Below are positions 579 to 35,110 of a stretch of DNA of 64,000 bases, in pieces; the stretch's first letter is position 1; each line of letters begins with the position of its first letter. The notes beneath the pieces are model-generated. The model searched no databases. It had not been told where the DNA came from and saw only the letters and a list, made by a program, of their open reading frames with translations. The translations under genes were made by a program, and so were the position numbers. Location of the stretch: the IMG/VR virus record IMGVR_UViG_3300028549_003773. One strand, 5' to 3'. The stretch comes from a virus. Lineage: Duplodnaviria; Heunggongvirae; Uroviricota; Caudoviricetes.

Positions 579-600
579 TAGTGGTACAGTTTTTTTGAAG
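579..600 (+). promoter_or_regulatory. conserved intergenic motif TAGTGGTAC + T-run (instance 1), 58 bp upstream of the ORF at 658
   Basis: caaaTAGTGGTACagtttttttgaagg; same 9-mer plus T-run at 1352, 2554, 3902, 5581, 5674, 29377 and 35070, always + orientation and 45-90 bp upstream of a start codon. Confidence 0.4.
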
Positions 601-657
601 GAGTTGGTATTTTGCTGACTCTGTCATAATAAGGCCTAAGGCCGAAGGAGTTTCCAC

Positions 658-1323
658 ATGCAAACTTTTAAATTTGATAACGGGCAAAGGGGAAGTTTTC
701 GTCAAGTTACTGTATCTCCGGAAGGAGTATGCAGAGATGTAGTGAAAGTTATCCGTGGAGAGAAAAGAACAATCCAGGAAGCATTTACTGGTGACTTCCT
801 TTTCAAAGAAGGGAGAGTCTTGGAGACAGTGTCAATCATTTCCGAGAATGGAGTGCCTATTCGCATCTCCAACATTGTGAAAGAAGCGGAAGCTTGGCGC
901 TTTTGCCCGGCGGCATTGCAGCTCTGGCTCTCCGAAGGGAAAACTTCGTCACTGCCTGCAGGATATGGGTGGGATGGTGAGGTTACCAATAAAGAGGCGA
1001 GAAAAATCGCCGCAACACATAAATTCTTCCAGGGGCTTGAGGAGAAAGTGATTGAACAACTGGCGAAAATAGCCAAGTATTCACCTCGCTCAGGAATGCC
1101 CATGGATTGGGCCAAAGTAGGGCGAGATACGCTGCCATCGTCCATCTATATGGATGATGACCCATCCACATCATGGGTAGTGTGGACCTTTGACAACAAA
1201 GTGAAGTTGGTTAATAAGGTCAGCTCCACCAAAAACATTCGGGGCGCAGCTAAATTGCACCTCGGCGCATACAGAAACAGCAAGGGGACCTATGGAGTGA
1301 AGTGGGAACTCTTCCGTAAATAA
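658..1323 (+). CDS. hypothetical protein
   Basis: 221-aa ORF with RBS ggccgaaggag before the ATG; overlapping minus-strand ORFs of the track are treated as spurious. Confidence 0.6.
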   Translation: MQTFKFDNGQRGSFRQVTVSPEGVCRDVVKVIRGEKRTIQEAFTGDFLFKEGRVLETVSIISENGVPIRISNIVKEAEAWRFCPAALQLWLSEGKTSSLPAGYGWDGEVTNKEARKIAATHKFFQGLEEKVIEQLAKIAKYSPRSGMPMDWAKVGRDTLPSSIYMDDDPSTSWVVWTFDNKVKLVNKVSSTKNIRGAAKLHLGAYRNSKGTYGVKWELFRK

Positions 1324-1330
1324 AAAGTCG

Positions 1331-1369
1331 GTACCACTATGTCTGTATGAGTAGTGGTACTGATTTTTT
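1331..1369 (+). terminator. perfect 9-bp inverted repeat (GTACCACTA...TAGTGGTAC) followed by TTTTTT; terminator-like, or hairpin promoter (motif instance 2)
   Basis: gtaccactatgtctgtatgagtagtggtactgatttttt sits directly after the stop of the 658-1323 ORF and 50 bp before the next start. Confidence 0.5.
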
Positions 1370-1417
1370 GAAGCAATAACGCTTCTTAATTCAAAGCCGA
1401 AAGGCAAAGGGGATTCA

Positions 1418-1594
1418 TATGGCAATATCAGCTGAGAAAATAAAAACACTGCAAAGAAGAGTTGTTGATAAAATTTGGAAAAATAACTTTTTTGCAGTAG
1501 AAGTCATCGGATTTGCAATCCGCAAAGGCTACATCAAGTGCAATGATATTCTGACTGAGGAAGAGACAAAAGTATTTATGTGGAAAAAATAATT
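1418..1594 (+). CDS. small hypothetical protein (58 aa)
   Basis: ATG preceded by aaaggcaaagggga; absent from the track because it is under 60 aa; fills an otherwise empty gap. Confidence 0.4.
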
Positions 1595-1621
1595 CAACGC
1601 AGAAATGCAAAGGAGAAACAC

Positions 1622-1918
1622 ATGCAGATAACAGACAGTGACCTCGCATTATTAAAGGAACTGAAACCGAAAGAAGACGAACATATACTCTTGGAAGAAA
1701 CTATAGAAAAAGCCAAGAAAAAACTTAGCGTAGGAAAAACAGTAAGAATAATAGGTACCGGGTACACAGGTATCGTAAAGGGATTTAATGAGAGGCTTGG
1801 CGGATTTTATCCCGGAGTAAGATACCCGATATTCGTAAAAATTATTTACTCAAAAAATGAAAAATTCAAAGAAGCTGAAGGTCAGACATTCGAGTATGGT
1901 ATCGATCAATTAAAATAA
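1622..1918 (+). CDS. hypothetical protein
   Basis: track ORF 1580..1918 starts at GTG; the ATG at 1622 sits at the end of a 34-bp element identical to the one ending in the ATG of the next gene (1949), so 1622 is the likelier start. Confidence 0.55.
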   Translation: MQITDSDLALLKELKPKEDEHILLEETIEKAKKKLSVGKTVRIIGTGYTGIVKGFNERLGGFYPGVRYPIFVKIIYSKNEKFKEAEGQTFEYGIDQLK

Positions 1919-1948
1919 ATTCAACGCAGAAATGCAAAGGAGAAACAC

Positions 1949-2425
1949 ATGTGCAAAAAAAAACTTTTAAATCCTCCGGAAAATAATTACGCGTTTTGGG
2001 AAAACAAAGTAATGAGAAAACTGGGTAAAAAATATGAAAAATATACGTACAAAGAACTTGCTGAACTCTTTGGGAGAACAGTAGGAGCTATTAAAGCACG
2101 TTCCTGTGTATTAAGAATTATTGTGAGGATGGCTCCTTACGCAGATGAATTACTTCCAGTAATGAAATACAAATGCTCTGATTCAGCAAAAAGACGAATA
2201 AATACAGAAGAAGGTAGAAGAACTCATAGTAAAGCTGTAAAAATGGCGCAAAATCCTGAAGTAAAGATGAAAAGATCTGCTTCTTTTAAAGCACAGTTAA
2301 AAACTGAGCAAGGAAAAATAAATCTTGCAAAAGCACACAAAGCAGCGCAGACACAAGAAGCCAATGCTAAAAGAGCAGCAACTATGAAAGCCGTATGGGC
2401 AAAAAGAAAAGCTGATAATAAGTAG
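1949..2425 (+). CDS. HTH protein (sigma-70 region-4-like helix-turn-helix) with basic NUMOD3-like C-terminal repeats
   Basis: YTYKELAELFGRTVGAIKARSCVLR resembles sigma r4/LuxR-type HTH; C-terminus KRRINTEEGRRTHSKAVKMAQNPEVKMKRSASFKAQ is lysine/arginine-rich. Confidence 0.45.
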   Translation: MCKKKLLNPPENNYAFWENKVMRKLGKKYEKYTYKELAELFGRTVGAIKARSCVLRIIVRMAPYADELLPVMKYKCSDSAKRRINTEEGRRTHSKAVKMAQNPEVKMKRSASFKAQLKTEQGKINLAKAHKAAQTQEANAKRAATMKAVWAKRKADNK

Positions 2426-2553
2426 AGATAGCAGCACCCTGCCAAGTAGTTAACGGTGGGGTGCTGCTATCTTTTTTAACACCCTGTAGCTAACTTGGTA
2501 GTAAGTACGTGGGGTCGATTCATATGGGTGATTTGGTAGCGTGGAGGTGGGGG

Positions 2554-2575
2554 TAGTGGTACTGGTTTTTTGGAG
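2554..2575 (+). promoter_or_regulatory. TAGTGGTAC + T-run motif instance 3
   Basis: gggggTAGTGGTACtggttttttggag lies 50 bp upstream of the ATG at 2617. Confidence 0.4.
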
Positions 2576-2616
2576 TAGTGGAGATCCAAAGTTATTAATA
2601 ACAACAAAGGAGATGG

Positions 2617-2876
2617 ATATGAAAAAGTTTGTGAGATTGGCATTGTGTGTTATTGCAGAAGTAATAGTAATATTAGCAGTAGTTCAAACCTTCGCAGCCG
2701 AATTGAGCTACGAAGAAGTGAACTGCGACTGGAATGGAAGTACCCTTATTATACAAGTACCAATGCCAGCGCACTGGACTTGGGAAGATAAGGAAGTAGC
2801 CGCAGAAACAATCTGTGATTCAATTAAGGAGTATGAGGACCAGATTGAAATTTCAACCTGTGAGGAAGAGGAATGA
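2617..2876 (+). CDS. small secreted protein (signal peptide)
   Basis: MDMKKFVRLALCVIAEVIVILAVVQTFAAEL is an N-terminal hydrophobic signal; RBS aaggagatgg precedes the start; the track ORF began at an upstream non-ATG codon. Confidence 0.5.
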
Positions 2877-3071
2877 TTATGTTAATAACAGGAAACTTCC
2901 CATTGTATGATAGGGAAGGCATTCCTACAGGAAAGACGGAATTTGTGGTATCACATGGTATTGATTTAGATACAGGCATACCTGTGATACTACCTAATGA
3001 ACCACCATCTAAATTTCCAGGTGCGTTCTTCTCATTAGAAGCAAACGAGTGGCTTATGCCGGGAGAATAAT

Positions 3072-3899
3072 ATGAAATTTTGGACAGCATCATATGGGTA
3101 TCCAGGACCTTATAGACTGGATATAACTGTAAAAGGTCAAGACCCAATAGGTCGAATATTTGCGCCTACCTGGGGGATGGTGCTTGAATGGAAAGCCTCG
3201 GACAAAGGTCCAGAAGCGCAACAGAAATATATTGCAGAATATCATAAGCTGATGTTGGCAGTATTTGGATCCCAGGAATGGAAAGAGTTACTTTCACGGG
3301 ATTATGTCGTGCTTGTTTGTTTCTGCCCGGCGGAAGCATTTTGCCATAGACATCTACTGGCATATTACTTGAAACACTACGGTGCGACATACTGTGGTGA
3401 AATCGTGGACTTCGGGAAGCAAAAAGACATCCTGGAGTTCAAAGGAGACCATGCGTGGTTATCAAACTTTGCTCCATGTAAATTCACACACCTTGATGTT
3501 GAATATACATCAACTGAAGCGTTCTATCAAGCTTGGAAATTTGATGCAGTTGCTGTGATTCAAATAAAAGATGAAGACAATGACATAGTGTGGGTAAACG
3601 CTAGGGAGTATGTAGCTAAACAACCAGCTAACATAGCCAAGCGCTTAGGAAAAAAAGCAGACCTGTGTTGGAATTGGGACACAATACGCGTTGAAGTAAT
3701 GAAAGTTGCGCTTGAATATAAATTTATTCATAACTTACATTACAGAGCGTTGCTCAAAGCTACGGGCACCGCGAAACTTGTGGAAGGTAACTGGTGGCAC
3801 GATAACTTCTGGGGAGACTGTGGTTGCGCGAAGTGCATTGGAATCCCTGGAGCCAACACACTCGGCAAACTGATAATGGAGCTGAGGGGTGGCTTGTGA
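3072..3899 (+). CDS. DUF488-NADAR fusion protein (candidate ADP-ribose / ADP-ribosyl-DNA hydrolase)
   Basis: N-terminal half ends in VVLVCFCPAEAFCHRHLLAYYL, which matches the DUF488 CHR signature as I recall it; C-terminal half has FLSNF-type WLSNFAP...TSTEAFYQAWKF, resembling the NADAR/YbiA hallmark. Confidence 0.65.
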   Translation: MKFWTASYGYPGPYRLDITVKGQDPIGRIFAPTWGMVLEWKASDKGPEAQQKYIAEYHKLMLAVFGSQEWKELLSRDYVVLVCFCPAEAFCHRHLLAYYLKHYGATYCGEIVDFGKQKDILEFKGDHAWLSNFAPCKFTHLDVEYTSTEAFYQAWKFDAVAVIQIKDEDNDIVWVNAREYVAKQPANIAKRLGKKADLCWNWDTIRVEVMKVALEYKFIHNLHYRALLKATGTAKLVEGNWWHDNFWGDCGCAKCIGIPGANTLGKLIMELRGGL

Positions 3900-3901
3900 A
3901 A

Positions 3902-3931
3902 TAGTGGTACTGCTCCTTCGGGAGTAGTACC
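3902..3931 (+). promoter_or_regulatory. TAGTGGTAC motif instance 4 within an imperfect hairpin (ggtactgctcc ttcg ggagtagtacc)
   Basis: immediately after the stop of the NADAR gene and 46 bp before the ATG at 3958. Confidence 0.4.
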
Positions 3932-3957
3932 ATAACAAACTTAATAGGAGGTATAGT

Positions 3958-5370
3958 ATGAAACAGTTTATTGCCGTAACAGAAACCCTGGTGACGGGAT
4001 TGGAAGTTGTGACCCCACATTTGGCGTGGCTCCTGCGCTGCGCTATCATGGAACATGCAGGGAATGATAACGTGAATGTCATTTCATTCCACAACAAAAT
4101 ACCGAAGAAAGTTTTCGGTATGGCATACCCTGCGGTCAGAGGTATTGCCATCAACTTAGAAGAGCATGTGTATGCTGCTCTTGATAAGTGCATGAAAGAC
4201 GAAAACCGTAATGTGTCCTTAAGAGCATTACTATTGCACGAGCTTCTGGATACGGCTGTGCACGAAGCTGACCATCTCAAAAGTGCCGCAGAAACAGGCG
4301 ATTGGGATAGCACAGAGTTAAACGAAGAGAGAGCAAAGGCCGAAGCAAAGAGGAAGTCTTGGAAAGCTGCAAAGGAATGGGAAGTGGATTTAACCAGCTT
4401 CGGACCATACTTAGAAGCTGAGTTGGAAACCTTCATGACGGCTCTTAAAGAAGATGCCAAGACAAAAACTGACATGTGGAGAGACTTACAAATCTACATG
4501 TGGGATAAAAAATTGGGATACTACGACCCAAGTACAGGTGTAGAACTGGGCATACCTCAGACATTCGAAGCTCTGGCAAAAGATGAAGAGCCTTGGATGA
4601 AAGCGCCTGCAAAATTCATTTCTCAGCTCGGACCTGAAGTATCTGCAAGGCCAGTACCTCCTGCACCAGTTCAGACACCAGTTGTGGCTCCACCACCAGT
4701 ACCTGAAGAGGTTATTGCTCCTGTAGTAGAAGAAGCTTATCAGGATGCTGATAGTTTTATGAACTATTCAGATAATCCGTTTGATATCAAGGAGTATATG
4801 CCTCCTGCGCCAGTGGAAGCTGTTTCAAACCCACCTGAATTACCAGCACAAGTGGATGGGGAGTTCATGACATCAAGCAAAATCCTTGAAGTAGCTGAAA
4901 AAGTATTCAGGACTTTGTTCTGGCATGTGCAGACAAAATGTGAATTCACCACAGACGGTGGATATAACAATTCTGCAGCTGTACTTGAACCAGTGCGCAT
5001 TGACCACATCGAAGGCGCATTAAAGCTGTTCACTCATATGTGTACCTATGACCAAGTAGGTAAAGTATATGAAAACAATCAGCCGACGACGCATGGAATC
5101 AGAGGCATACTAACCAAAGAAGGTTTGCCATCTTACAAACTGTTCATGCGTATGAATGGAACACTGCATTACAGAACACTGCTTCCAGTCAATAACAATA
5201 AGGTAAAAGACGGTGCCTATACGAAATGGGCACAGGAAGCCAGAAATGGTGTTCGCAGAATGTTTATCTGTGAGGAAGATAAGGGAAAGGGTATTAAGGC
5301 ACATATAACCTTACCTGCTGGTCTACCCCTCGGCCAAGAAAAATTCGAAGTCTGGGGTACGAAGAAATGA
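3958..5370 (+). CDS. hypothetical protein with HExxH-like motif and Pro-rich linker
   Basis: 470-aa ORF; AVHEADHL (HExxH) near residue 100; PVPPAPVQTPVVAPPPVPEEVIAPV proline-rich spacer; otherwise unrecognised. Confidence 0.6.
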   Translation: MKQFIAVTETLVTGLEVVTPHLAWLLRCAIMEHAGNDNVNVISFHNKIPKKVFGMAYPAVRGIAINLEEHVYAALDKCMKDENRNVSLRALLLHELLDTAVHEADHLKSAAETGDWDSTELNEERAKAEAKRKSWKAAKEWEVDLTSFGPYLEAELETFMTALKEDAKTKTDMWRDLQIYMWDKKLGYYDPSTGVELGIPQTFEALAKDEEPWMKAPAKFISQLGPEVSARPVPPAPVQTPVVAPPPVPEEVIAPVVEEAYQDADSFMNYSDNPFDIKEYMPPAPVEAVSNPPELPAQVDGEFMTSSKILEVAEKVFRTLFWHVQTKCEFTTDGGYNNSAAVLEPVRIDHIEGALKLFTHMCTYDQVGKVYENNQPTTHGIRGILTKEGLPSYKLFMRMNGTLHYRTLLPVNNNKVKDGAYTKWAQEARNGVRRMFICEEDKGKGIKAHITLPAGLPLGQEKFEVWGTKK

Positions 5371-5580
5371 CAGTATCCACTGGATTTGTACTCAACAGAG
5401 AAACTATTATCACAAAATCTGGTTGTAAAATAGAGTACACCAGTGGGCTCAAAAAAGGGACTAAGATATGGATTCATTACAAAAAAGATGGGTCCATATC
5501 TTATGTCGAAGAGTACATGGAGGATACATATCAATGGTAGGGTTTAGGCCTGTGCAGGCTTGGTAGTCACTGCCGAGAAG

Positions 5581-5703
5581 TAGTGGTACCGTTCTGCGAT
5601 GGGTTGGTAGTAGCTCCTGCTCTCTTCCGCCTTGTGGAAGTGGAGTTGGGGTTGGAGCTGGAGACATGGAGAATAGTGGTACAGCTCTGTGATGGGTTTG
5701 TGG
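5581..5703 (+). promoter_or_regulatory. tandem duplicated TAGTGGTAC(C/A)G..TCTG.GATGGGTT.GT elements (instances 5 and 6)
   Basis: two ~35-bp related copies at 5581 and 5674, upstream of the ATG at 5751. Confidence 0.4.
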
Positions 5704-5750
5704 GTGTTCCCTTACTCATATTTAACTAAATCTTTATTAGGAGAAAACGT

Positions 5751-6686
5751 ATGAGCTCGATTGGAAAATTTGACGCGTCGGTTATGTGTGGTAGAGTGAA
5801 TAAAGTCAAAAACGCAGTAGCCGGTTTTGAGCATGCCGGTGTGTATTATCCTGGGTTCACGAAGCCGGACGGAAATGTCGTCCAAGCTCGATGGGAAGGC
5901 GTCATCTTCATTAACAATCTGCCTTTCACCGGCAAAGACGGAGTGAAGAAAGAGTCCAAGCCGCTGGCTATCAAAGTCACTGCCTGGAACAGCGCCAATT
6001 CAATACCAGGACACGGAATTGCTGACATCTGCGCCAAGTCGCTTTCACCGGGAAAAGAAGTCAGTTGTAAACTCACTGCTTCGTCCTACGAAAAACGCAT
6101 CTACGTGGACGGCATACCGCAAGTTGACCACAAGGGAAATCCCTTGTTCGACAAAAGCGCGGTGTCTTTCACCATGGACGGTCTGCCAATCTTTGGTAAT
6201 GACGCAGACGCGATAATCATGAATGAAATAAACGCTTTCCGCACCAACGGGATAGCTGTGACCTTCGGTGCACGTCCAATATTTTGGAACGTGATTGGTC
6301 ATGCTGACAATCTTGCTTGGCAGAAAATCAAAACTGACCGCAGAGATGCCATGTATGTACCTGGCCAAGCAATGTACGGTTACGCAAAAGTAATAGTCAA
6401 CAGCAATGCGGTACCTGCAGCGAACGCAAATGCAGCCTTGTTGCAGCAAATGGCAGCGATGCAAGCGCAACTTGCCGCTTTGAATCAAACTCCTGCAGCG
6501 CAGCCCACTCCGGTTGCTCCTCCTGTTGCACCAAATCCGACTACTCTCGGTATGGACCCGGTCATGCTTGCTCAGATGATGGAGATGATGAAAACCTTTA
6601 ACCAAACTCCGGTCGTTCCGCAAGCACCGGCTGCTGGCGCAACAACTACAGCTGCCGCCGGACTGTTGAACAACGTTCCGATCTAA
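5751..6686 (+). CDS. hypothetical protein with Q/A/P-rich low-complexity C-terminal tail
   Basis: 311-aa ORF with RBS ttaggagaaaacgt before the ATG; C-terminus LLQQMAAMQAQLAALNQTPAAQPTPVAPPVAP; possible OB-fold-like N-terminal region, not certain. Confidence 0.6.
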   Translation: MSSIGKFDASVMCGRVNKVKNAVAGFEHAGVYYPGFTKPDGNVVQARWEGVIFINNLPFTGKDGVKKESKPLAIKVTAWNSANSIPGHGIADICAKSLSPGKEVSCKLTASSYEKRIYVDGIPQVDHKGNPLFDKSAVSFTMDGLPIFGNDADAIIMNEINAFRTNGIAVTFGARPIFWNVIGHADNLAWQKIKTDRRDAMYVPGQAMYGYAKVIVNSNAVPAANANAALLQQMAAMQAQLAALNQTPAAQPTPVAPPVAPNPTTLGMDPVMLAQMMEMMKTFNQTPVVPQAPAAGATTTAAAGLLNNVPI

Positions 6687-7034
6687 GCTACATACACAGC
6701 CGAGCTGTTTAGCCTGTATGTAGAACAGAGTACCGTATCATCCATTATGGGTGGTACGGTACTTCTTTCTTTTTCAAATGGCTTCGCAGGGTAGGACAAC
6801 TGATGTTGCTGGCTATAGGCCTGGTACAGTTTTTTTTTACTCATGCATTAAATGGAGGGATACATGTCGTTAATCAGGGAATGCATTTCATATCACCGAC
6901 TTTTGGGCCTGGCTGCGCTAATTCAGTTACGGGTAATTTTGGGGTTTAGGAGAGGGATCCGCCGCTGAAATTGTCTCCAGACCGGCGATTAATTCATATC
7001 CAGAGATATTTACAGGTGAGTCTTTTGGGGGTGG

Positions 7035-7079
7035 TGTATAGATTAGTACTACTAATAAATATTAAACTAACCTATACAC
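7035..7079. terminator. 13-bp inverted repeat between convergent genes (bidirectional terminator candidate) at the GC-rich/AT-rich boundary
   Basis: gtgtatagattag ...21 nt... ctaacctatacac with one mismatch; lies between the + block ending at 6686 and the - gene ending at 7083. Confidence 0.45.
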
Positions 7080-7082
7080 GTT

Positions 7083-7745
7083 TTAATTTGTTATTTTTTC
7101 TGCTTCAATAATTTCCTTATCCCATGATGGAGGTGGGGTGGTGTTCTTATAAGTTTCTCTTACAACAAAAAATATTTTTAATAAATCTTCATTTAGAAGT
7201 CCATCTTTTTTTAAAGCGAGACATTGAAATTGATTGCCTATTTTTTTTATAAAATTATAAACTTTTTCTCTGGATATAGATTTAATTAAAATCTCATCTG
7301 AAGGTAAAGCAGATTCTTTTTGAATAAGCAAAGTTTCTAATTTAGATATTTTTAACATCAATTCTTCACTATCTTTCATGGATAAATTAACAATTTCATC
7401 TACTATTTTATTATGTTCTTCTATAGTAATATATTTAGTAGTATCTATAATAGTACCATTAGCTACCATTGGTACATCTAATGGTACTAACTTTTTTTGG
7501 GTACATGTACCCACTTTTTTAGTAGAATCAGACTGGGTACATGTACCCACTTTTTGTGCTCTTTTATATGATTGTCTCAATGTGTTGGCTTGTACAGTAG
7601 CACCATCATTAGTCTTGTTAAAATCTTCTGCTACTTTATCACAAGCTTTTCTAATTGACATACCATCTACTACTAATTTGGTAACAGCATCAAGAGCAGA
7701 TTCACCACAAATGTCTACATTAATTTTTACTTTACATTCACTCAT
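7083..7745 (-). CDS. HTH transcriptional regulator carrying in-frame copies of its own palindromic operator
   Basis: only minus-strand gene in the window; start moved to the ATG at 7745 (MSECKVKINV), preceded by AGGAGGT; region DAVTKLVVDGMSIRKACDKVAEDF looks HTH-like; KVGTCTQ x2 is encoded by palindrome copies at 7499 and 7535. Confidence 0.6.
   Translation of the reverse strand: MSECKVKINVDICGESALDAVTKLVVDGMSIRKACDKVAEDFNKTNDGATVQANTLRQSYKRAQKVGTCTQSDSTKKVGTCTQKKLVPLDVPMVANGTIIDTTKYITIEEHNKIVDEIVNLSMKDSEELMLKISKLETLLIQKESALPSDEILIKSISREKVYNFIKKIGNQFQCLALKKDGLLNEDLLKIFFVVRETYKNTTPPPSWDKEIIEAEKITN
7499..7548. repeat. two copies of the 14-bp perfect palindrome GGGTACATGTACCC (each followed by ACTTTT) inside the regulator coding sequence
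   Basis: exact palindromes at 7499-7512 and 7535-7548. Confidence 0.9.
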
Positions 7746-7768
7746 ATTACCTCCTATTAAAAAATACT

Positions 7769-7816
7769 GGGTACATGTACCCACTTTTATATATTGTAGT
7801 TGCTACATGTAGCAAC
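7769..7816. promoter_or_regulatory. operator-like palindromes in the divergent promoter region: GGGTACATGTACCC and GTTGCTACATGTAGCAAC
   Basis: perfect palindromes at 7769-7782 (25 bp upstream of the regulator ATG) and 7799-7816, between the - regulator and the + gene at 7875. Confidence 0.7.
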
Positions 7817-7874
7817 TTTTATAATATGTATTATACCACATTTAAACTGAAAGTCAACAAAAAAGGAGAAAAAA

Positions 7875-8099
7875 ATGTTCAATGCAATAACAGAAATAGT
7901 ACTAGTAATAATATGTACATCTTTCTTAATTTATAATTTTATAGGCTATTTTAAACTCGAACATAAACATAGGCTTTTTGAATTGACAATGCTGCTAACA
8001 ATAGCTGTACCTTGTGTACTTATTATACTGTACTCAGTGTATTATGTGATTTATTACATGTTCGAAATATTTAATATAAAAATAGTCATAGGATCTTAG
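7875..8099 (+). CDS. small membrane protein
   Basis: 74 aa with two hydrophobic helices; RBS aaaaggagaaaaaa before the ATG. Confidence 0.45.
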   Translation: MFNAITEIVLVIICTSFLIYNFIGYFKLEHKHRLFELTMLLTIAVPCVLIILYSVYYVIYYMFEIFNIKIVIGS

Positions 8100-8429: not shown

Positions 8430-8789
8430 CTATATACAGAACAAAAACAAACAAACTGTATCATAGTACTACTATTTTTATAACAAAAATTAAAAATCGC
8501 GCTATAAAATTAACATTTCTATAACAAAAATAAATTATTTTGATAAAGGAAATATATGATAGAAACAACATTACCAGGACTAGTACTAATGTTCTTAGTA
8601 GTATTCTGTATGTATATGGCCATAATGAATTTCATTATCTTTAAATTATTAGATAATCATCCAGATTCAAAAAAACCAAGAAGAAAATTAAATATAAAGA
8701 ATATGAAGGAAGATGGGCAATAGTTATTATAAGAATTGTACTACAGTACTATGGTTGGTGAATTGTACTACTATATTATTACTACTAAG

Positions 8790-8839: not shown

Positions 8840-8956
8840 TTTTAAAGTGTGGTACTTTATATTTTTTTGTTTGATTTTTTTATTGACAAAAAAGTGTGAC
8901 TATTATGCACCCATATATCGTAATTACATATTTTTTAGTAGTAATAATATAGTAGT

Positions 8957-9116
8957 ATAGTACAACAATTATAGTAGAAAAGCAGTACAACAATTATAGT
9001 AGAAAAGCAGTACAACAATTATAGTAGAAAAGCAGTACAACAATTATAGTAGAAAAGCAGTACAACAATTATAGTAGAAAAGCAGTACAACAATTATGGT
9101 AGAAAAGCAGTACAAA
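8957..9116. repeat. tandem direct repeats, 25-bp unit AGCAGTACAACAATTATAGTAGAAA x ~6 (iteron-like)
   Basis: exact head-to-tail copies read directly; last copy has one substitution (attatGgtag); array ends 28 bp before the RBS of the ORF at 9145. Confidence 0.9.
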
Positions 9117-9144
9117 AGAAAAAAATAAAAAGAGGAGTGATGCT

Positions 9145-26291: not shown

Positions 26292-26298
26292 CATTCAA

Positions 26299-27768: not shown

Positions 27769-28164
27769 ATGAGTGATTTTAAAACTGGCGATTTAATTAT
27801 TGTGAGCGACTGGTACCCAGTATTACCTACCAGTACAAGAATGAAGTACCTTTGTACTATTAATAGTACGAAACATCTGTGTGTTTCACCTATGGAATGG
27901 GAAGAAGGAGATTTTAGTAATATTATTGAATACAAATTTATTGACAAACCGCGTACAGTACTCAAAGTACGTAAAGCTTCTGATATAGTTAAGTGGCTTG
28001 AAGATAATGGTTATCGACCTACAATGCGAGGTAGCTGGCTTTCAATGAAAGAACGTCACTTACTATTTGATAAAAGTATGTTCATCGAATGCGGCAAAAA
28101 TTTTGGCGATGTAAAAAATCAAGACTGTTTCATGGATGCTTGGTTAGAAGAAGTAGAGCTTTGA
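27769..28164 (+). CDS. hypothetical protein
   Basis: 131-aa ORF. Confidence 0.45.
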   Translation: MSDFKTGDLIIVSDWYPVLPTSTRMKYLCTINSTKHLCVSPMEWEEGDFSNIIEYKFIDKPRTVLKVRKASDIVKWLEDNGYRPTMRGSWLSMKERHLLFDKSMFIECGKNFGDVKNQDCFMDAWLEEVEL

Positions 28165-28174
28165 CAGGAGAGTT

Positions 28175-28510
28175 ATGGGAGATGGCGCTGATATGGCATT
28201 AGACAATGCCTGGGATGATTGGGAACAAAGAGAAGAGTGGATTAATAAAGGACGTAATCCAGTAGAAGGATATGAATTAGGTATACTTAATGAGCTTGGT
28301 GGAGAAGAAGCCGATTCAAGATTACCTTCAAGGTCAAAAAAATCCCTTTATACAAAAACAGATAAGCGAAAGGCTACCAGTGTTGAATGTAAATATTGTG
28401 GTAAGAAAAACTTGAATTGGCAGAATATTAGAGGTAAATGGCGCTTGTATGATGAAAAAATTATGCATATGTGTGCAAATTACAACAAGATCAATTATGA
28501 AAAAAATTAG
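28175..28510 (+). CDS. hypothetical protein with C-terminal zinc-ribbon-like CxxC...HMC
   Basis: CKYCGKK...HMCANY. Confidence 0.45.
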   Translation: MGDGADMALDNAWDDWEQREEWINKGRNPVEGYELGILNELGGEEADSRLPSRSKKSLYTKTDKRKATSVECKYCGKKNLNWQNIRGKWRLYDEKIMHMCANYNKINYEKN

Positions 28511-29357
28511 TTTAATATTATTATTATTATTATTATTTATTTTTTGCTTATTCTTTACAAGTTGTATGTTTCTACCTTTCAACAAGATGATGAGGGCCCC
28601 TCATGCTAATTATGGCTCTTGTGCTGAATGTCATAGTACAATATTTTTATTAAAAAACGCAGAGTCTAAGAATTAATTATTTACAAAGGAGTAAAGTATG
28701 GAAGAAGATATTAGTAATTATTTTGACATTTTCGAAGAATTTTCTCAAGAATTAATTGATGAATGTAGAGATGATTGCGGAAACGCCGAAAAAGAAATTG
28801 AATGGAGTTACATTTAAGGAGTATTTATGAAAGAAGAAAAATCTTTGTTACAAACATACGTATGGTTATTTATAGATTGGGTAAAAACTTTTCTATATTT
28901 TATTCCAATAATTAGTAAAAGAACACCTGAGATTTGTGCGGACTTGTATACATACCATAAACATTGGTTGGGTGTACAGGTAGGTATAAGAAAAGAACGT
29001 GCTTTAAAAAGAAAAACTAAAGTGTATTAAATTATGAAAGAAGAAAAAGTAATAAGTGCTGATGTTATATGCTACAAAGTAACATATACCCTATGGGGCA
29101 GAATATATGAACAAGAAATGGATATTGCTATTTCCGATTATAAAGATAAAACCACTGAAGCAAGGTTAAAAAATGATTTCGAAGAAGCAATATACGTTAT
29201 GAATTCTGAGTATATAGCAGAAGAAGTACCAAAAGAAGTGCAAAACCCTATTAAAATAGATTCTTACATTAGAATAACTAACAAGGGAGAAGCGCTTCAG
29301 TAATTCTGTATATATTTAGATATCTGTAAATACATATGAATTTAGCAGTTGGTGCTT

Positions 29358-29415
29358 GGTGGTGGGGCTTGGGGAGTAGTGGTACTGGCTTTTTGGGCTG
29401 GTGCTTTCTACTCAT
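29358..29415 (+). promoter_or_regulatory. GC-rich ~50-bp element containing TAGTGGTAC (instance 7); near-identical copy at 35052
   Basis: ggtggggcttggggagTAGTGGTACtggctttttgggctggtgc; a GC island in an AT-rich intergenic region. Confidence 0.45.
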
Positions 29416-29559
29416 TTATATAATATTATCCTTAGGGTAGTATAAATGGAAGTAAAAAGAAAATTTTGTACATTCAAAAAGAATGCAGTAGACATCTGTC
29501 TTGTGTTACTTTTATCTATCTATTTTGTAATACTCAAATTCAAATATCTATTAAAACTA

Positions 29560-29870
29560 TGAAAAAATCAAAAAAGTTTGGTGGCACTATAAAGGATTGG
29601 CAGATACACACATTAAGTGTAACAAAAGAATGGCTTGATACAGTATGCACAGAAAAAGGTCTCCAACCTATGATATTAACAGGCACGGTTGTTGAGGATA
29701 AATTAGGTAGATGGCTGCCTGGTTTTCATATGAGGTCAACATTAATTAAAAAGATAGATAGAGAAAAAGGAGAAGTTGAAACTCAAAATACTATCTATAA
29801 GCTTGAAGGTAAAGAAGGTGGTGATATCTTTAAAGATTTAGGAGATAATGTATTTAAAATATTTTATTAA
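29560..29870 (+). CDS. hypothetical protein
   Basis: likely start MKKSKKFGG inside track ORF 29466..29870. Confidence 0.45.
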
Positions 29871-30147
29871 GTATAAATAAAAGTATTTAAATAACATTAT
29901 GTGAGAATACAAATGAGTACAGATGACGACACACTAATTATACACAATGTTGATCTTAATTTATTAGAAAATCAACGGCGACAATTTAATAATATGCTTA
30001 GTATGGACAAGATTATGGGTTTTATGTCAATTAAGCAAAGAGAATCATTAGTTGGTCTTGGGAATATGTTAGACAAATGGTCAGATGATAAGTATTTTCA
30101 AAAGCAAACTAAGAGAGATTAATAAAATTATATAAGGAATTGACATC

Positions 30148-30861
30148 ATGTCTTTACATGTCTGTGGTGACACACATTGTCCTAGGGATATCCATAAATT
30201 GAATACCACAGAATGGCCAGAGCAAAGATCGCTAAATAAAAATGATATACTTGTTATATTAGGTGATTGTGGCTTGATATGGGATCCTGATTGGTCAAGA
30301 GAAGAATTGCATTGGGCTAATTGGCTTGCTAACAAAAAATTTACAGTTTGTTTTATTGATGGTAATCACGAAAATTTCGCAAGATTAAATAAATTTGGTA
30401 CAGTTCCTTTTTACGGAGGAACTGCAGGAGTTGTGTTTGAAAATGAAAATGGTGTAGTATATCATCTAAAAAGAGGAGAAGTATACACCATTGAAAACAA
30501 AACAATATTTACCTTCGGGGGTGCTCAATCCACTGATAAAGAACGTAGAATTATTGGACGTAGTTGGTGGCCTGAGGAAGTTCCAAACTTCGCAGAAATT
30601 AATCATGGATTAGAAAATCTAGAAAAACATCACAATTGTGTTGATTTTATATTAACACATACTGCACCAACAAGTATTATTACTCACTTTAATTTTATAG
30701 ACGCAGCTATGAGAATTGATGATCCTACTTCTAGATTTTTAGAAGAAGTGGATAAAATTACACAATTTAAACAGTGGCATTTCGGCCATTTCCACACCAG
30801 CCAGCATAAAGACATGAAATATATTTGTCATTATAACTGGTATCCCTATAAATTATTTTAA
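30148..30861 (+). CDS. calcineurin-like metallophosphoesterase
   Basis: GDCGLIWD (GDxxDRG-like) and CFIDGNHENF (GNHE) motifs. Confidence 0.7.
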   Translation: MSLHVCGDTHCPRDIHKLNTTEWPEQRSLNKNDILVILGDCGLIWDPDWSREELHWANWLANKKFTVCFIDGNHENFARLNKFGTVPFYGGTAGVVFENENGVVYHLKRGEVYTIENKTIFTFGGAQSTDKERRIIGRSWWPEEVPNFAEINHGLENLEKHHNCVDFILTHTAPTSIITHFNFIDAAMRIDDPTSRFLEEVDKITQFKQWHFGHFHTSQHKDMKYICHYNWYPYKLF

Positions 30862-30869
30862 GGATCTTC

Positions 30870-31388
30870 ATGAAAACAAATTATAGAAAGTATCTTTCCG
30901 AACTTGATGAGTCTTTTCTTGAACAATGTGGTCTTACACGTAACTCTACTGTAGATGAAATTATAAGTAAACTTCAATGGAGTACTTACGGTCCAAATGC
31001 CGATACCAAAAAATTCAAATGGATAAAACTTCGTGACTGCACATCTGTACATTTACGTAAGATAAGAGCGTTACCCGATGTTTATAAGATTCATATGATT
31101 GCCATTGATATAATTTTAAGTATACGTCAATTAAAAACCAGATCAAATGCTCTGGTAGGTACTAATTGGTGTCGTAATGAACCTTATGACCCGGCAAAAG
31201 GGCCCTATAATACCTATACAGTACTTTTTGTAACGAATACGGATAATATACATAAAAAGCACGCATGCCAAGTAGTTTATTATGGAGATAACGGCAGACA
31301 CTGGAGTTTACCCCTTAGTAAATGGCCTGGAAATTTAGTACAAATAGATTATAAGACCGCTAACAAATTAAAAAATAAAAGTAAATAA
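30870..31388 (+). CDS. hypothetical protein
   Basis: 172-aa ORF. Confidence 0.45.
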   Translation: MKTNYRKYLSELDESFLEQCGLTRNSTVDEIISKLQWSTYGPNADTKKFKWIKLRDCTSVHLRKIRALPDVYKIHMIAIDIILSIRQLKTRSNALVGTNWCRNEPYDPAKGPYNTYTVLFVTNTDNIHKKHACQVVYYGDNGRHWSLPLSKWPGNLVQIDYKTANKLKNKSK

Positions 31389-31396
31389 GGAAGACT

Positions 31397-31588
31397 ATGC
31401 AAAAGTTTTTAAAGGTGTACAGTAGTGTAATTATATTAGTAGTACTTGCAGTATTTTTATTCGGGTTCGTAATACCTGTGCTAATATCAGCTAAAAGTAC
31501 TGAATTAGTTGTATTGGGTTTTTTGGCGGTGCTGGTATCAGTACCATTTTATATTTTGAGTATTTATAAAATTTATAAAGGAATTTAA
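31397..31588 (+). CDS. small two-TM membrane protein (NfeD-like partner?)
   Basis: 63 aa with two hydrophobic helices, directly upstream of the SPFH gene. Confidence 0.45.
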   Translation: MQKFLKVYSSVIILVVLAVFLFGFVIPVLISAKSTELVVLGFLAVLVSVPFYILSIYKIYKGI

Positions 31589-31592
31589 AAAA

Positions 31593-32444
31593 ATGAAATT
31601 TATGAAAAACTTTGTTTTTGTTGTATTGGCCCTTTTGATGACCTCAGCATGTTCTAAAGTTCCTGCTGGTTATGTTGGTATTAAAGTATACCTCCTTGGA
31701 GGAGAAAAGGGTGTAGAATCTGAGCAACTAGGAGTAGGTAGATACTATATTGGTATGAATGAGGATTTGTTCTTGTTTCCAACATTTACACAAAACGCTG
31801 TATGGACAGCCGATAAACGTGAAGGTAGCCCAGACGACGAATCTATTACCTTTCAAACAGTAGAAGGTATGAGCGTAAATGCTGACATCGGCATTTCTTA
31901 TGCCGTTATTCCTGACAAAGTGCCTATGATTTTTCAAAAATATAGGAAACAAATTGACGAAATTACAGATATTTATTTACGCAACATGGTTAGAGATGCT
32001 TTTGTAGCTATTGCAGCTTCTCAGCCTATTGAAAACGTGTATGGCGCTGGAAAAGCCGAATTGTTGAAACAAGTAGAGGAATCTGTGAGAAAGCAATGTG
32101 GAGATATGTTTATCATTGAACGTATTTATTTGATTTCTGACCTAAGACTTCCTAACGAAGTAGTAACCTCTATTAATAAGAAATTGGAAGCTACACAAAA
32201 AGCTCAGCAACGAGAAAATGAGGTTAGAGAAGCGAAGGCAGAAGCAGAAAAAGTAGTAGCCAAAGCCGAAGGAGAGGCGCGATCAATTGCTGTAGTAGCA
32301 GAAGCACAAGCTAAGGCAAACATAACGATAGCTAAATCAGTAACGCCTGAGCTTATTTCTTACAACGCAATCAAAACTTGGAATGGGCAACTACCTACTA
32401 CGATGATACCAGGAAGTGCCGTACCTTTTGTAAATGTTAAATAA
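31593..32444 (+). CDS. SPFH/band-7 (prohibitin/HflC-like) lipoprotein
   Basis: signal peptide plus lipobox LMTSAC; EAKAEAEKVVAKAEGEARSIAVVAEAQAKAN is a typical SPFH C-terminal coiled-coil. Confidence 0.65.
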   Translation: MKFMKNFVFVVLALLMTSACSKVPAGYVGIKVYLLGGEKGVESEQLGVGRYYIGMNEDLFLFPTFTQNAVWTADKREGSPDDESITFQTVEGMSVNADIGISYAVIPDKVPMIFQKYRKQIDEITDIYLRNMVRDAFVAIAASQPIENVYGAGKAELLKQVEESVRKQCGDMFIIERIYLISDLRLPNEVVTSINKKLEATQKAQQRENEVREAKAEAEKVVAKAEGEARSIAVVAEAQAKANITIAKSVTPELISYNAIKTWNGQLPTTMIPGSAVPFVNVK

Positions 32445-32839
32445 GTAATTTGAAACCTACTACCTCTTTTCAAGGGGGTAGTAGGTACAACGCAAAGAGG
32501 AGAAGCAGCGAAAGCAGGGCTTTTAGTGTTCGGTGGCCACCCCACTAAGTAGATTCGATTACTACCTCTTCTGAATAATAAACTAAAGGTAATACATGGA
32601 GAATAAACCTATTTGTTTTGATAAATACATTTGTTTACCAATGCCACATAACCCACCAATGCAAGATCTATTTTACAGACTACAATCTGTAGGAGATCTA
32701 AGCTTTAATAAATTTAGTAAAGGTTATAAAATATCTTTAGTACGATATGAAGATTCAATAACTATGACTGAAATTGTAGATACTTTTTATACTGGTCTTT
32801 ATAGACTATGGAGAAGAGTACAAATAATAAGGAAGCAAA

Positions 32840-34171
32840 ATGAATGAATTAGAACTTTTAATCATCGACCGATTAGCTAACAACAATTTCGAAGTTTTCC
32901 TTGTAGGTGGTGCCGTAAGAGATAAAATTCTAGGACTACCCTATGAAGATATAGATTTTGCTACAAATGCTCGTCCTGAGCAAATCATCAATCTTTTTCC
33001 AGACAAACACATAGGTGTTGTAGGTAAAAGTTTCAAAGTAGTATATGTAGAAGGTGTTCAAATTGCTACTTATCGTAAGGATATTCAAAAAAAATTCTTC
33101 AGTGCTAAATATTGTGAACCAGTATACGCAGATAGTATATACGAAGATTTATGTCGTAGAGATTTGACTATCAACGCAATGGCAATCAACGCAATAACAA
33201 AAGAATTCATCGACACGCAGAATGGGGAAGTTGACTTACGTAATGGTGTTATACGTCTTGTAGGAGATCCTATTCAACGACTATGGCAAGATCCTAATAG
33301 GATAGTTAGAGCGTGCAGATTTGTAGCCAAAACAGAAGGGCATTTTCATAGGAAAACCTATGTTGCCTTATGTGAGTGTGCAGTATTTATTAAACGTCAC
33401 GTAGAGGCTGAAAGAATTCAAGAAGAGATAATGAAAGCTATGAAAGTTAATACACCTTCAATATTTTTTAGTTCACTACAATCAATTGGTGCTTTAAAAT
33501 ATATATTCCCAGCTATGGCTCGTTCTTTTGAACAAACAGGTGGTGAGTTTCATAAAGAGACAGTAGGTGAGCATTTGATGCTTGCTGGCGATGGAATACA
33601 TAAAAAATTTCCTGTGTTAAGACTAGCAGCTTTTCTTCATGACATTGGTAAACCAAAAGCTTTTCTTAAAGAAGATGATGGTAGTTTTAAAGCTCATGAA
33701 GCATACGGTGCCAAAATAGCTAAAAAGTATCTTACTGATTTGAAATTCCCTTCGGCAGTGATAAATGAAGTACATGGCCTTATTAATTCACACATGAGGA
33801 TCTGTAGAGGTTTAACACCTAAAGGTATAAGGAGACTACGTAAGCACTTATCTGACGATGGTGTCGATCCTCGCAGCTTTTTGAGGTTAAAACTCGCAGA
33901 TAGGTCAGCAAACTTGTATAGGTCTAGCACAGAGATTCAACCGACAAAAGAGTTAATAATTAATGCAGGTATCAGGTCAGTAGAAGACCCTGTGTTAACA
34001 TTAAAAGACTTAGCCATATCGGGTGGAGATTTAATAAAAGAATTTAATCTACAGCCAGGACCAATTGTTGGTAAAATACACAAAGCTTTGCTTGAGTTTA
34101 TAATAGAAGAAGGTGAAGAGTATAACACTTATCAAATTTTAAAAGATCAAGCCTATAAATTATTAGTTTAA
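32840..34171 (+). CDS. cca: tRNA nucleotidyltransferase (CCA-adding enzyme) with HD phosphohydrolase domain
   Basis: LVGGAVRDKILGLPYEDIDFAT is the Pol-beta head motif; DLTINAMA; HD-domain residues FLHDIGKP ... HEAYGAKIA. Confidence 0.8.
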   Translation: MNELELLIIDRLANNNFEVFLVGGAVRDKILGLPYEDIDFATNARPEQIINLFPDKHIGVVGKSFKVVYVEGVQIATYRKDIQKKFFSAKYCEPVYADSIYEDLCRRDLTINAMAINAITKEFIDTQNGEVDLRNGVIRLVGDPIQRLWQDPNRIVRACRFVAKTEGHFHRKTYVALCECAVFIKRHVEAERIQEEIMKAMKVNTPSIFFSSLQSIGALKYIFPAMARSFEQTGGEFHKETVGEHLMLAGDGIHKKFPVLRLAAFLHDIGKPKAFLKEDDGSFKAHEAYGAKIAKKYLTDLKFPSAVINEVHGLINSHMRICRGLTPKGIRRLRKHLSDDGVDPRSFLRLKLADRSANLYRSSTEIQPTKELIINAGIRSVEDPVLTLKDLAISGGDLIKEFNLQPGPIVGKIHKALLEFIIEEGEEYNTYQILKDQAYKLLV

Positions 34172-34521
34172 ATATACATTAGAAGGATGAAGATGGAACT
34201 TGACACAAGAACATTGAACGAAGCACAATTTGCAACCTTTCAAAATTTTTTGCGAGACTCGGTATCTAAAACATTACATAATTTAGTTACTATATTTGTT
34301 CTCAAAGTTTTGTATGATAAAGCACCAGAGAAAGAACAAGAGATGTTCAAAAATTTTCTAAACACGGCAGTAGATGAAGTTAAAAAAATTCACACCTTAA
34401 AAGCTGCCACTCATTACGATCTTTCTGATAAGCAGAAAGAACTTTTCGAAGAAGATATGAATGAGGTTATAAATAATTGTTTAGACCCAGTAACAAATAT
34501 ACGTAATAAGGAGTAATCTTT

Positions 34522-35040
34522 ATGGTAAATTTTTATTTTAGTGCGGATTGGCATGTCGGACATGATAATATTATAAAATACTCACGTAGACCTTTTAATA
34601 ATGTCGATGAAATGGATCACGCATTAATAACTCGTCATAACGAAGTAGTAACAAACAACGATGTACATGTACATGTTGGTGATTTTACTCTAAAGAATAA
34701 AGATTACGCTACAAGTATTATTAAACAATTAAACGGTCAACAAGTTTTTATAATTGGAAGTCATGATAAATGGCTGAATGATAAAGGAAAACAAATATGG
34801 GAAAAGACAATAGACAATCAAAAGATTGTTTGTTGTCATTACCCAATGTATAGCTGGCCAGAGTCTCACTATGGAAGTTGGCTTCTATACGGACATCATC
34901 ATGGTAGACTAGCAGTTCAATGTAAGGCTATTGATGTTGGTGTAGATACTAATAATTTCTATCCTTATTCATTCGAACAAATAAAAAGTATTATGGAAAG
35001 TAAGCCAGTAACTCCTGGAACGATAACTAAGAAATATTAA
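34522..35040 (+). CDS. calcineurin-like metallophosphoesterase (small, Mre11/Pnkp-phosphatase-like)
   Basis: SADWHVGHD, HVHVGDF, GSHD and GHHH motifs. Confidence 0.7.
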   Translation: MVNFYFSADWHVGHDNIIKYSRRPFNNVDEMDHALITRHNEVVTNNDVHVHVGDFTLKNKDYATSIIKQLNGQQVFIIGSHDKWLNDKGKQIWEKTIDNQKIVCCHYPMYSWPESHYGSWLLYGHHHGRLAVQCKAIDVGVDTNNFYPYSFEQIKSIMESKPVTPGTITKKY

Positions 35041-35051
35041 ATATGATTTTT

Positions 35052-35110
35052 TGGGTGGGGCTTGGGGAGTAGTGGTACTGGCTTTTGGGGCTGGTGCTGG
35101 TGCTGGGTCT
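35052..35110 (+). promoter_or_regulatory. GC-rich ~55-bp element with TAGTGGTAC (instance 8), paralog of 29358
   Basis: tgggtggggcttggggagTAGTGGTACtggcttttggggctggtgctggtgctgggtc; 65 bp upstream of the ATG at 35141. Confidence 0.45.

Follow-up and report, generated by a model that had tools for sequence, protein, structure and literature searches.

A recurrent nine-nucleotide element as a candidate phage-specific promoter in an uncultured giant-phage clade

The Motif and Its Genomic Setting

The viral sequence analyzed here, IMG/VR record IMGVR_UViG_3300028549_003773, is a 64-kb stretch of DNA (the window) that is phage-like and carries almost all of its genes on the + strand, among them genes for RtcB, a CCA-adding enzyme, a helicase, RuvB and several phiEco32-type amidoligase/GATase proteins. 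Its GC content is 39–49% in 1–7000/7030 and ~30% elsewhere, and the GC-rich block extends from position 7030 to a point at least 5.3 kb beyond the upstream end of the window. The subject of this study is the 9-mer TAGTGGTAC, whose exact sequence occurs eight times on the + strand (579, 1352, 2554, 3902, 5581, 5674, 29377, and 35070). Six copies lie within the GC-richer block, and the two distal ones are found in islands (29337–29406 and 35049–35117) that are near-identical to each other over ~45 nucleotides (nt). The GC profile agrees with the initial annotation, which had placed six copies in the GC-richer first 7 kb and two in GC-rich islands, the latter being more precisely G-rich.

On both strands together the window contains nine matches to TAGTGGTAC against 0.41 expected, and none of 100 shuffles gave nine, so that a chance origin is indeed implausible. 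The single − strand match, at 1331–1339, is the other arm of a hairpin (1331–1360) that includes the copy at 1352, and the proposed recurrence of eight or more copies in one orientation is borne out by the eight on the + strand. All of these are intergenic (p ~1e-8, at an intergenic share of the window of 10.4% taken from a crude gene call) and co-oriented with the genes downstream of them. Counted from the start of the motif, the distance to the start codon is 79 nt for the copy at 579, 67 nt for 1352, 65 nt for 2554, 56 nt for 3902, 77 nt for 5674, 71 nt for 35070, ~70 nt for 29377 (to a small open reading frame, ORF), and 170 nt for 5581. A spacing of 45–90 bp, as initially described, thus applies to seven copies (56–79 nt) but not to that at 5581, which, as the distal one of two tandem copies, falls outside this range. 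Similarly, the T-run and G that were said usually to follow the word are present after five of the eight copies (579, 1352, 2554, 29377, and 35070) but not after those at 3902, 5581, and 5674.

Conservation in Related Phages

An exact-protein look-up identified the contig L153, which is 100% identical to the window where the two overlap and reaches 5280 nt further upstream; nine additional + strand copies of TAGTGGTAC are found in this extension. One of them (L153 5109), which has neither hairpin nor T-run, is located within the 3'-terminal part of a called Hydrolase_2 gene, with the next ATG 75 nt away; the claim that the word is restricted to intergenic DNA thus holds for all eight window copies but not genome-wide. 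Pattern and protein scans moreover recovered relatives that are syntenic with the window at 40–60% protein identity, all of them uncultured: L121/L150/L152 with 13 + strand copies and one − strand copy, L144/L149/L049/L078 with 10, L151 with six, and L157 with a single copy at the contig end. Because the first of these phages is also represented on a 264-kb contig, it is a jumbo phage. A search for relatives via a 470-amino-acid protein returned none. Several other contigs were dismissed, as the word sits in Ser/Gly-repeat coding sequence in L114 and L140/L141, and most contigs of the first pattern scan as well as the NADAR-domain loci L122–L148 proved to be chance matches or unrelated phages.

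In total, 48 copies were collected over five contigs, at a median of 77 nt from a Shine-Dalgarno (SD)/ATG start, with a strong SD sequence in nearly all cases. The four GC-rich blocks contain 43 exact + strand copies against ~0.03–0.06 expected per block, and seven single-mismatch variants occur in the same context, including CAGTGGTAC, TTGTGGTAC, and three instances of TAGTGGTCC; the invariance of the word is therefore strong, yet not absolute. Same-position copies keep the exact 9-mer across the four genomes while their flanks have diverged. This bears on the possibility that the 9-mer belongs to a recently spread repeat family, either REP/MITE-like (repetitive extragenic palindromic sequence or miniature inverted-repeat transposable element) or shuffled as a cassette in the manner of the T4 PeSL (promoter early stem-loop), and has no sequence-specific function. 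Long leader modules such as GAAGGAGCYRGCATATCGCYRGCTCTAAAAY, which are common to many copies, and the near-identity of the islands around 29377 and 35070 would fit this explanation. However, same-position copies kept in genomes that share only 40–60% protein identity exclude a recent spread; the 5' arms and loops differ among copies, neither terminal inverted repeats nor target duplications were found, and orientation and spacing to genes are strict. A REP/MITE-like repeat was thus rejected, only the ~22-nt core being common to the copies, and we consider this explanation very improbable. A Chi-like site was discarded as well, because the copies are intergenic and have a fixed spacing to start codons.

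The relatives also contain copies in uncommon positions. L121 possesses a 0.9-kb divergent non-coding region (1042–1929) in which the GC skew flips sign, with − strand genes on one side and the + strand block on the other. Here, a − strand copy at 1252 faces the − strand genes, and the + strand copies at 1743 and 1809 face the first + strand gene. The copy in L157 comes after an extended non-coding stretch, beyond which ORFs are found on the opposite strand, and has the full TAGTGGTACAGTTTTTTTGAAGGAG without any structure (−3.2 kcal/mol, z = +1.7). For the copies of the L121 divergent region, L157, and L153 5109 there is no upstream transcription that would need to be ended, which favors a promoter over a terminator.

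Consensus and Structural Contexts

Alignment of 39 copies on the 9-mer yielded the consensus R-TAGTGGTAC-W-G-N-TYTTTT-GRRG, with G at +10 in 33 of the 39, T or Y at +12 to +17, C-free purines at +18 to +24, and an information content of about zero upstream of position −1. The spacer from the 9-mer to the G/purine tract is fixed at 8–9 nt. Around this core, ~20 of the 48 copies combine a complementary upstream arm with a T-run and form a canonical intrinsic terminator. Eight others have the T-run without a hairpin, so that a T-run follows 28 copies altogether, and the remaining ~20 lack it and keep the pyrimidine spacer and the G start (GATGGG, GGGAG). Instead of an arm, 12 or 13 of the hairpin-less copies have a G-rich, C-poor upstream tract, whose position is conserved before a small signal-peptide gene and an SSB-like gene. 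On the sense strand, such tracts occur in the window at 2537–2553, 5636–5673, 29345–29376, 35054–35069, and 62195–62225, as well as at L121 12700–12732 and L151 5461–5488. A G-quadruplex was rejected as a general feature, because canonical four-run motifs are confined to two relatives, designated A and C, and none was found when sought in the window.

The structural role of the word varies accordingly among the window copies: it is the 3' arm of a hairpin at 579, 1352, and 5581, the 5' arm at 3902, 29377, and 35070, part of a loop at 5674, and unpaired at 2554. The first copy (579–600, + strand like all those described here) comprises TAGTGGTAC at 579–587, AG, a T-run at 590–596, and GAAG from 597; its hairpin (566–572 with 580–586) has 7 bp and is followed by U7. 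The second (1328–1373, word at 1352–1360) is the 3' arm of a hairpin of 12 bp including one G-U pair (−26 kcal/mol, z = −8.3), whose 5' arm (1328–1339) holds the − strand copy and which is followed by U6. The pairing of this copy with its own reverse complement, already recognized in the initial annotation, is thus real, and the stem is longer than described there. Its T-run extends over 1364–1369, and the G at 1370 opens a hairpin of the 5' untranslated region (GAAGC/GCTTC, 1370–1385). The third copy (2554–2576) has no partner arm and lies between the G-rich, C-poor tract at 2537–2553 and a T-run with GGAG; it precedes a small signal-peptide-like gene and has same-position copies in three relatives. 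The fourth (3902–3933), with same-position copies at L121 10852 and L151 3774, supplies the 5' arm of a UUCG-looped hairpin of 13 bp (3904–3916 with 3921–3933); it has no T-run, and GGGAG starts 9 nt past the motif. Copies five and six form the tandem pair before the SSB-like gene (5751–6686), an arrangement kept in all four genomes. The distal member (5581–5602) forms the 3' side of a bulged hairpin (5561–5591) and lacks a T-run, the proximal one (5674–5695) has a G-rich tract upstream and carries the word in a loop, and in each GATGGG starts 8 nt past the motif. The seventh copy (29377–29385) is embedded in its G-rich island amid the AT-rich DNA of the window and precedes a small ORF and a DUF6957 gene. 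It continues with TGG, CTTTTT, and GGG and provides the 5' arm for a hairpin rich in G-U pairs (29381–29391 with 29395–29405). The eighth (35070–35078) is associated with a downstream hairpin (35073–35084 with 35088–35099) and precedes gene 35141–35911.

A 3'-arm hairpin with a U-run is thus strong at 1352, weak at 579, and not present at the other six window copies (2554, 3902, 5581, 5674, 29377, and 35070). The terminator function that had been offered as an alternative accordingly suits ~40% of all copies but not the remaining ones. Where a partner arm exists, it varies and includes G-U pairs and mismatches (CTGTACCAGC, CTGTACCGCTGCC, CAGTATCACTGCA, and GGTAGTCACTGCC) while the 9-mer is constant. 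The behavior of a pure terminator in these phages can be seen after the SSB-like gene, where a hairpin with T-run (6728–6774, hairpin 6728–6764, + strand) functions as a terminator only and has a 3' arm, GGGTGGTACGGTAC, that is like the motif but not identical to it. Since the arms of this hairpin vary across the four genomes by compensatory changes (GTACCGTATCATCC/GGGTGGTACGGTAC, GTGCCGTGCCATCC/GGGTGGTGCGGTAC, and GTACTGTACTATCC/GGGTAGTACAGTAC), it serves as an internal control that covaries on both arms. In intrinsic terminators both arms are free to vary, whereas in the motif hairpins the 3' arm is fixed and the 5' arm varies, with the exception of the three TAGTGGTCC copies of L121. A word that keeps its sequence even where its partner arm is different or absent favors sequence-specific promoter recognition, and this comparison argues for a word that is recognized as sequence, beyond its structure.

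These contexts nevertheless require that a different function be considered, namely a sequence-specific terminator or pause signal for a phage RNA polymerase (RNAP) in the manner of T7 class II or P23-45 signals, with other sequences acting as promoters and the hairpin, where present, adding host-type termination. The T-run after 28 of the 48 copies and the canonical hairpin in 20 would be explained, as would copies directly after stop codons (3899/3902 and 1323/1328) and the TAGTGGTCC variants with their compensating 5' arm, and P23-45 offers a precedent with seven terminators that have a 26-nt motif in common. Such a signal would, however, not be expected to lack any T-run in 20 copies, nor to be followed by a gene start after nearly every copy (median 77 nt). 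It is also at odds with the intragenic copy 75 nt before the next start codon and with the divergent-region copies, which head gene blocks and face outward on both strands. Furthermore, terminators at block ends do not contain the exact word, these intergenic regions offer no other promoter candidate, and a covarying RNA hairpin just downstream of the motif (see below) shows that region to be transcribed. We therefore judge a pure terminator or pause signal to be unlikely.

Beyond the exact copies, a degenerate variant, CCTGGTACAGTTTTTTTTT, is found at 6815–6840 on the + strand; the same-position copies in the relatives read GGTGGTAC or AAGTGGTAC. A hairpin at 32455–32490 (CCTACTACC-loop-GGTAGTAGG) follows gene 31593–32444. 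The sequence of its 3' arm, GGGGGTAGTAGGTAC, corresponds to the motif with an insertion, and a 150-nt GC-rich non-coding stretch comes next. At L153 1104–1340 (4176 to 3941 nt before the first nucleotide of the window), ~230 nt without a convincing ORF follow a full copy of the motif; this segment closes with a CAGTGGTAC hairpin and T-run and may be a small non-coding RNA unit.

Leader RNAs Downstream of the Motif

The leader of the gene after the first copy (597–657, + strand) is composed of a 5' stem-loop that begins with the first G, an A-rich linker, and a GGCC-TAA-GGCC hairpin abutting the SD sequence AAGGAG. This layout is common to 27 of the 29 T-run-type copies in five genomes, and in as many of them an RNA stem-loop opens at nt 1 or nt 4, the first G to follow the T-run being nt 1. 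In general form, the leader has four parts, which are the 5' stem-loop, the A-rich linker CTCTAAAAY, a small hairpin CCAAMGC-loop-GC, and AAAGGAG-N7-ATG, and longer modules, for example GAAGGAGCYRGCATATCGCYRGCTCTAAAAY, recur in many copies. A leader peptide after GAAGGAG was considered and rejected, as no consistent ORF exists. In 13 long-type leaders the 9-bp stem is paired in 94.8% of the cells with 13 double changes, and none of 500 shuffles reached as high a value. Because G-U pairs are frequent in this stem, the hairpin forms in the + sense RNA, and the transcripts consequently either start between the 9-mer and the stem or read through a strong terminator.

Directly before the start codon, a module consisting of (T)AAnTCAACGC, a short hairpin with GAAA, TTCG, or similar loops, and GCAAAGGAG-N7-ATG was identified at 79–117, 628–657, 1396–1418, 1588–1623, and 1917–1951, the last two being near-identical direct repeats. 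As it also precedes genes without a 9-mer (79–117, 1588–1623, and 1917–1951), this module is assigned to translation or stability and lies outside the promoter; it may be an element of mRNA stability, processing, or translation. The SD sequences of the GC-rich block are much stronger than those of several AT-rich genes, such as 35141.

Leaders this elaborate could be processed, and the short fixed word at a fixed distance from them might thus be the site of a phage regulator located beside other promoters or on a long read-through transcript. Such a regulator could be a DNA activator or repressor, for instance the helix-turn-helix (HTH) protein encoded at 1949–2425, whose ORF has a weak sigma-70 region 4/HTH match, or an RNA processing or stabilizing factor. 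However, the word is not a palindrome and is strictly oriented in the direction of the genes, a pattern typical of recognition by a polymerase or sigma factor and not of a dimeric operator. A separate core promoter was not found, and the conserved positions continue into the T-run and the purine start. On RNA, moreover, the word would be double-stranded (in either arm), looped, or unpaired, unlike the site of an RNA-binding protein. A regulator site is thus improbable in our view, to a similar degree as a terminator or pause signal.

A Single-Chain RNA Polymerase and Host-Type Promoters

The candidate for the enzyme that reads the motif is encoded at 45074–48337 on the + strand. Its 1087-amino-acid product contains a beta-type double-psi beta-barrel at ~345–430 and a beta'-type barrel with DFDGD at 807–811, and its homologs match both PF00562 and PF00623. 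The family profile hits only the bacterial beta double-psi beta-barrel (E = 6e-5) and is marginal on Rpo1N and the P23-45 tape-measure RNAP (8h2n, E = 0.14). From the DFDGD sequence, the two Pfam matches, and the barrel profile we infer that the protein is a single-chain two-barrel RNAP of an unstudied family. At least 400 metagenomic homologs were found, some of them on contigs of up to 327 kb; a close solved structure does not exist, and a tblastn search of the GenBank phage records revealed no homolog. The motif is present in the relatives A, B, C, and D, and a polymerase homolog with 70% identity and the same gene order was found in A, the only relative where it was checked. The polymerase gene is surrounded by an unusually large set of phiEco32-type COOH-NH2 ligase, class-I GATase/peptidase C26, and ATP-grasp genes (39399–44326, 50669–51772, and 55784–60003), whose order is identical in the relatives.

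In the intergenic regions of the GC-rich block, 21 sigma-70-like + strand promoters were counted where 24.7 are expected, and none of them is suitably placed. A near-consensus extended sigma-70 promoter (TTGACT-16-TG-TATAAT) is found on the − strand at 7857–7830, before gene 7083–7750; host-type promoters are thus recognizable in the window where present. This promoter suggests that the host polymerase transcribes at least gene 7083–7750, which is the sole clear − strand gene and lies at the boundary between the GC-rich and AT-rich parts.

The motif itself does not conform to known bacterial promoter classes. As a sigma-70 promoter, it would have a spacing of 21 bp from TTGARG to TAWAAY, where 16–18 bp are needed. 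Sigma-54 promoters contain GG and GC 10 bp apart (TGGCAC-N5-TTGC), and TGGTAC within the motif resembles TGGCAC, but the GC at the required spacing is absent in the aligned copies. A hairpin promoter of the N4 type was likewise rejected, as the hairpin is missing in more than half of the copies, and the stems (7–14 bp) and loops (4–12 nt) are variable.

The Proposed Promoter

The word, essentially fixed across 4–5 diverged genomes, the copies that head gene blocks in divergent regions, the covarying leader hairpin, the lack of suitably placed sigma-70 promoters between the genes of the GC-rich block, and the presence of a phage-encoded RNAP give comparative support to the initial annotation of the motif as a phage-specific promoter. 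Judged from these sequence comparisons, the TAGTGGTAC element is probably a compact phage-RNAP promoter that overlaps terminators in many of its copies. The promoter would comprise ~22 nt (R-TAGTGGTAC-WG-N-TYTTTT-GRRG) with TAGTGGTAC as the recognition element at about −18 to −10, the T/pyrimidine-rich 8–9 nt after it would be the melting region, and transcription would start at or beside the first G of the purine tract. Its reader would be a phage-specific enzyme, most likely either the 1087-amino-acid RNAP or a virion polymerase encoded outside the window, and any timing of expression during infection is a prediction of the same kind. The mRNA would then open with a protective 5' stem-loop followed by the small hairpin that abuts the SD sequence. 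In ~40% of the copies a complementary upstream arm appears to have been gained, by which the 9-mer and T-run could also terminate the preceding gene. The outcome might be a string of insulated units of mostly one or two genes across the GC-rich block, and the same promoter could also drive a few scattered genes (29447/29559 and 35141). The initial suggestion that the GC-rich block and two scattered genes have a transcription regime of their own is consistent with these data.

Several observations weigh against a promoter. The proposed start site is derived from spacing alone, the reading enzyme is only a candidate, and the motif is missing at the polymerase gene itself as well as at most AT-rich genes. 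In the relatives no intergenic copies were found within 10 kb on either side of the polymerase gene, a result that we regard as uninformative. The perfect 5' arm at 1331–1339 constitutes an antisense copy that would fire into gene 658–1323. Furthermore, ~20 of the 48 copies are textbook intrinsic terminators with hairpin and U-run, and three L121 copies have changed the word (to TAGTGGTCC) along with a compensating 5' arm, so that in these the hairpin itself must be selected. The invariance of the 9-mer is also partly due to ascertainment, because copies were collected by exact match. Finally, conserved-sequence terminators have been reported for the virion RNAP of P23-45 (10.1101/2022.12.01.518664).

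A more specific scheme, which we put forward tentatively and with less confidence than the promoter as such, interprets the GC-rich block as a series of "punctuation" modules. Each 9-mer would serve twice, as the 3' arm in the intrinsic terminator of gene n and as the promoter element of gene n+1, and would be read by the uncharacterised single-chain beta/beta' RNAP family. Each mRNA would be capped by a 5' stem-loop, and ahead of the genes that are driven most strongly the hairpin arm would be replaced by G-rich tracts. Such a scheme, if true, would yield the first promoter for that polymerase family and a compact orthogonal terminator-promoter part.

Comparison with Known Phage Promoters and Terminators

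Phage promoters with a conserved motif are already a known class, of which the element, read as a promoter, is a further example. In jumbo phages that encode RNAPs, a ~10-nt motif found computationally before early operons proved to be an early promoter in every tested case (PMC7598289). The element described here resembles the promoters of the phiKZ and AR9 virion RNAPs, which also have a conserved, lineage-specific motif of ~10 nt near the start and precede small early-type genes, and in both situations the phage encodes a non-canonical beta/beta'-related polymerase (PMC7598289). However, the phiKZ and AR9 motifs are AT-rich and located near −10, whereas TAGTGGTAC is GC-balanced, has a predicted position of −18 to −10, and is followed by the T-run. 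The polymerase, too, differs in being one chain of 1087 amino acids in place of split subunits, and no virion polymerase was seen in the window.

With T7 and SP6 promoters the element shares a compact specificity element, an AT-rich melting segment, a purine-rich G start, and the presence of near-identical copies before many genes. The comparable SP6 sequence is ...TATA/GAAGAG, and the 5' end of the T7 phi10 mRNA folds into a stem-loop, as do the leaders described above. Unlike in these phages, the window contains no gene for a T7-like polymerase, the element is shorter, and it coincides in part with the terminator of the gene before it. The early, phage-specific promoters of the N4 virion RNAP are associated with hairpins at one genome end and need a 5–7-bp stem with a 3-nt loop in every copy; in contrast, more than half of the copies described here lack a hairpin, and the stems and loops of the others are highly variable.

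A GC-containing hairpin directly followed by a U-run is found in ~40% of the copies, as in Rho-independent terminators. These differ from the element in that here the 3' arm is fixed and its partner adapts, many copies have no hairpin or U-run, and some have nothing to terminate. A further known system is P23-45, which uses two-barrel RNAPs with distinct motifs per promoter class and a 26-nt terminator motif near one genome end (10.1101/2022.12.01.518664). Divergent two-barrel RNAPs are common to both systems, and the profile of the window's polymerase has a weak match to 8h2n (E = 0.14). However, this similarity between the polymerases is marginal, no relation exists between the motifs, and in the phages studied here one motif seems to serve both roles.

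Other Features of the Window and Its Relatives

At 7030 the GC content falls sharply from ~45 to ~28%, and an inverted repeat (GTGTATAG...CTATACAC) is found at 7035–7080. A second recurrent motif occurs in segment 7499–8843, where the palindromic sequence GGGTACATGTACCC, also present as GTTGCTACATGTAGCAAC and GGTTGGTACATGTACCAAC, precedes ACTTTT, with eight matches against 0.03 expected. Two of these lie inside the − strand gene 7083–7750 and one just upstream of its start, and the palindrome could represent an operator set or another class of promoter or terminator. Just upstream of ORF 9145, at 8955–9115, six to seven tandem 25-bp units (GTACAACAATTATAGTAGAAAAGCA) form an iteron-like array, and the DNA near it is rich in TAGTAG/GTAC words, like the L121 divergent region 1042–1929.

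Within the motif-driven block, 3072–3899 encodes a fused DUF488-NADAR protein with 55–59% identity in relatives A and B, and the Hydrolase_2 gene of the upstream extension is its neighbor. NADAR domains reverse DNA ADP-ribosylation, and the DUF488-NADAR gene may thus be an anti-defense gene. In one of the relatives, the helicase ortholog (L158 14095–16533) has 812 amino acids compared with 461 and a LAGLIDADG_3 match, which points to an intein or homing-endonuclease insertion.

Searches with the window itself were largely negative. Region 1–8000 had no blastn match in the GenBank phage collection, Rfam and tRNA scans of the window detected only a tRNA-Leu at 63211, and a literature search for the 9-mer returned primers only. 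The 22-nt pattern had one chance-level match in representative bacterial and archaeal genomes, in a Flavobacteriaceae genome, and revealed neither a prophage nor a clue to the host.

Implications

Phage-specific promoters set the timing program of an infection and, as in the case of T7 and SP6, are the raw material for orthogonal expression. For this uncultured giant-phage clade, a ~22-nt consensus was obtained by comparison alone. The only recognizable polymerase of the clade is the unstudied single-chain beta/beta' enzyme, for which the element provides a concrete in vitro transcription template. An economical design is suggested, in which terminator and promoter would lie on the same bases. 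The phage would thereby possess at least two transcription regimes, one driven by the motif and comprising the GC-rich block together with a few scattered genes, and one for the rest of the genes, including that with the near-consensus host-type promoter.

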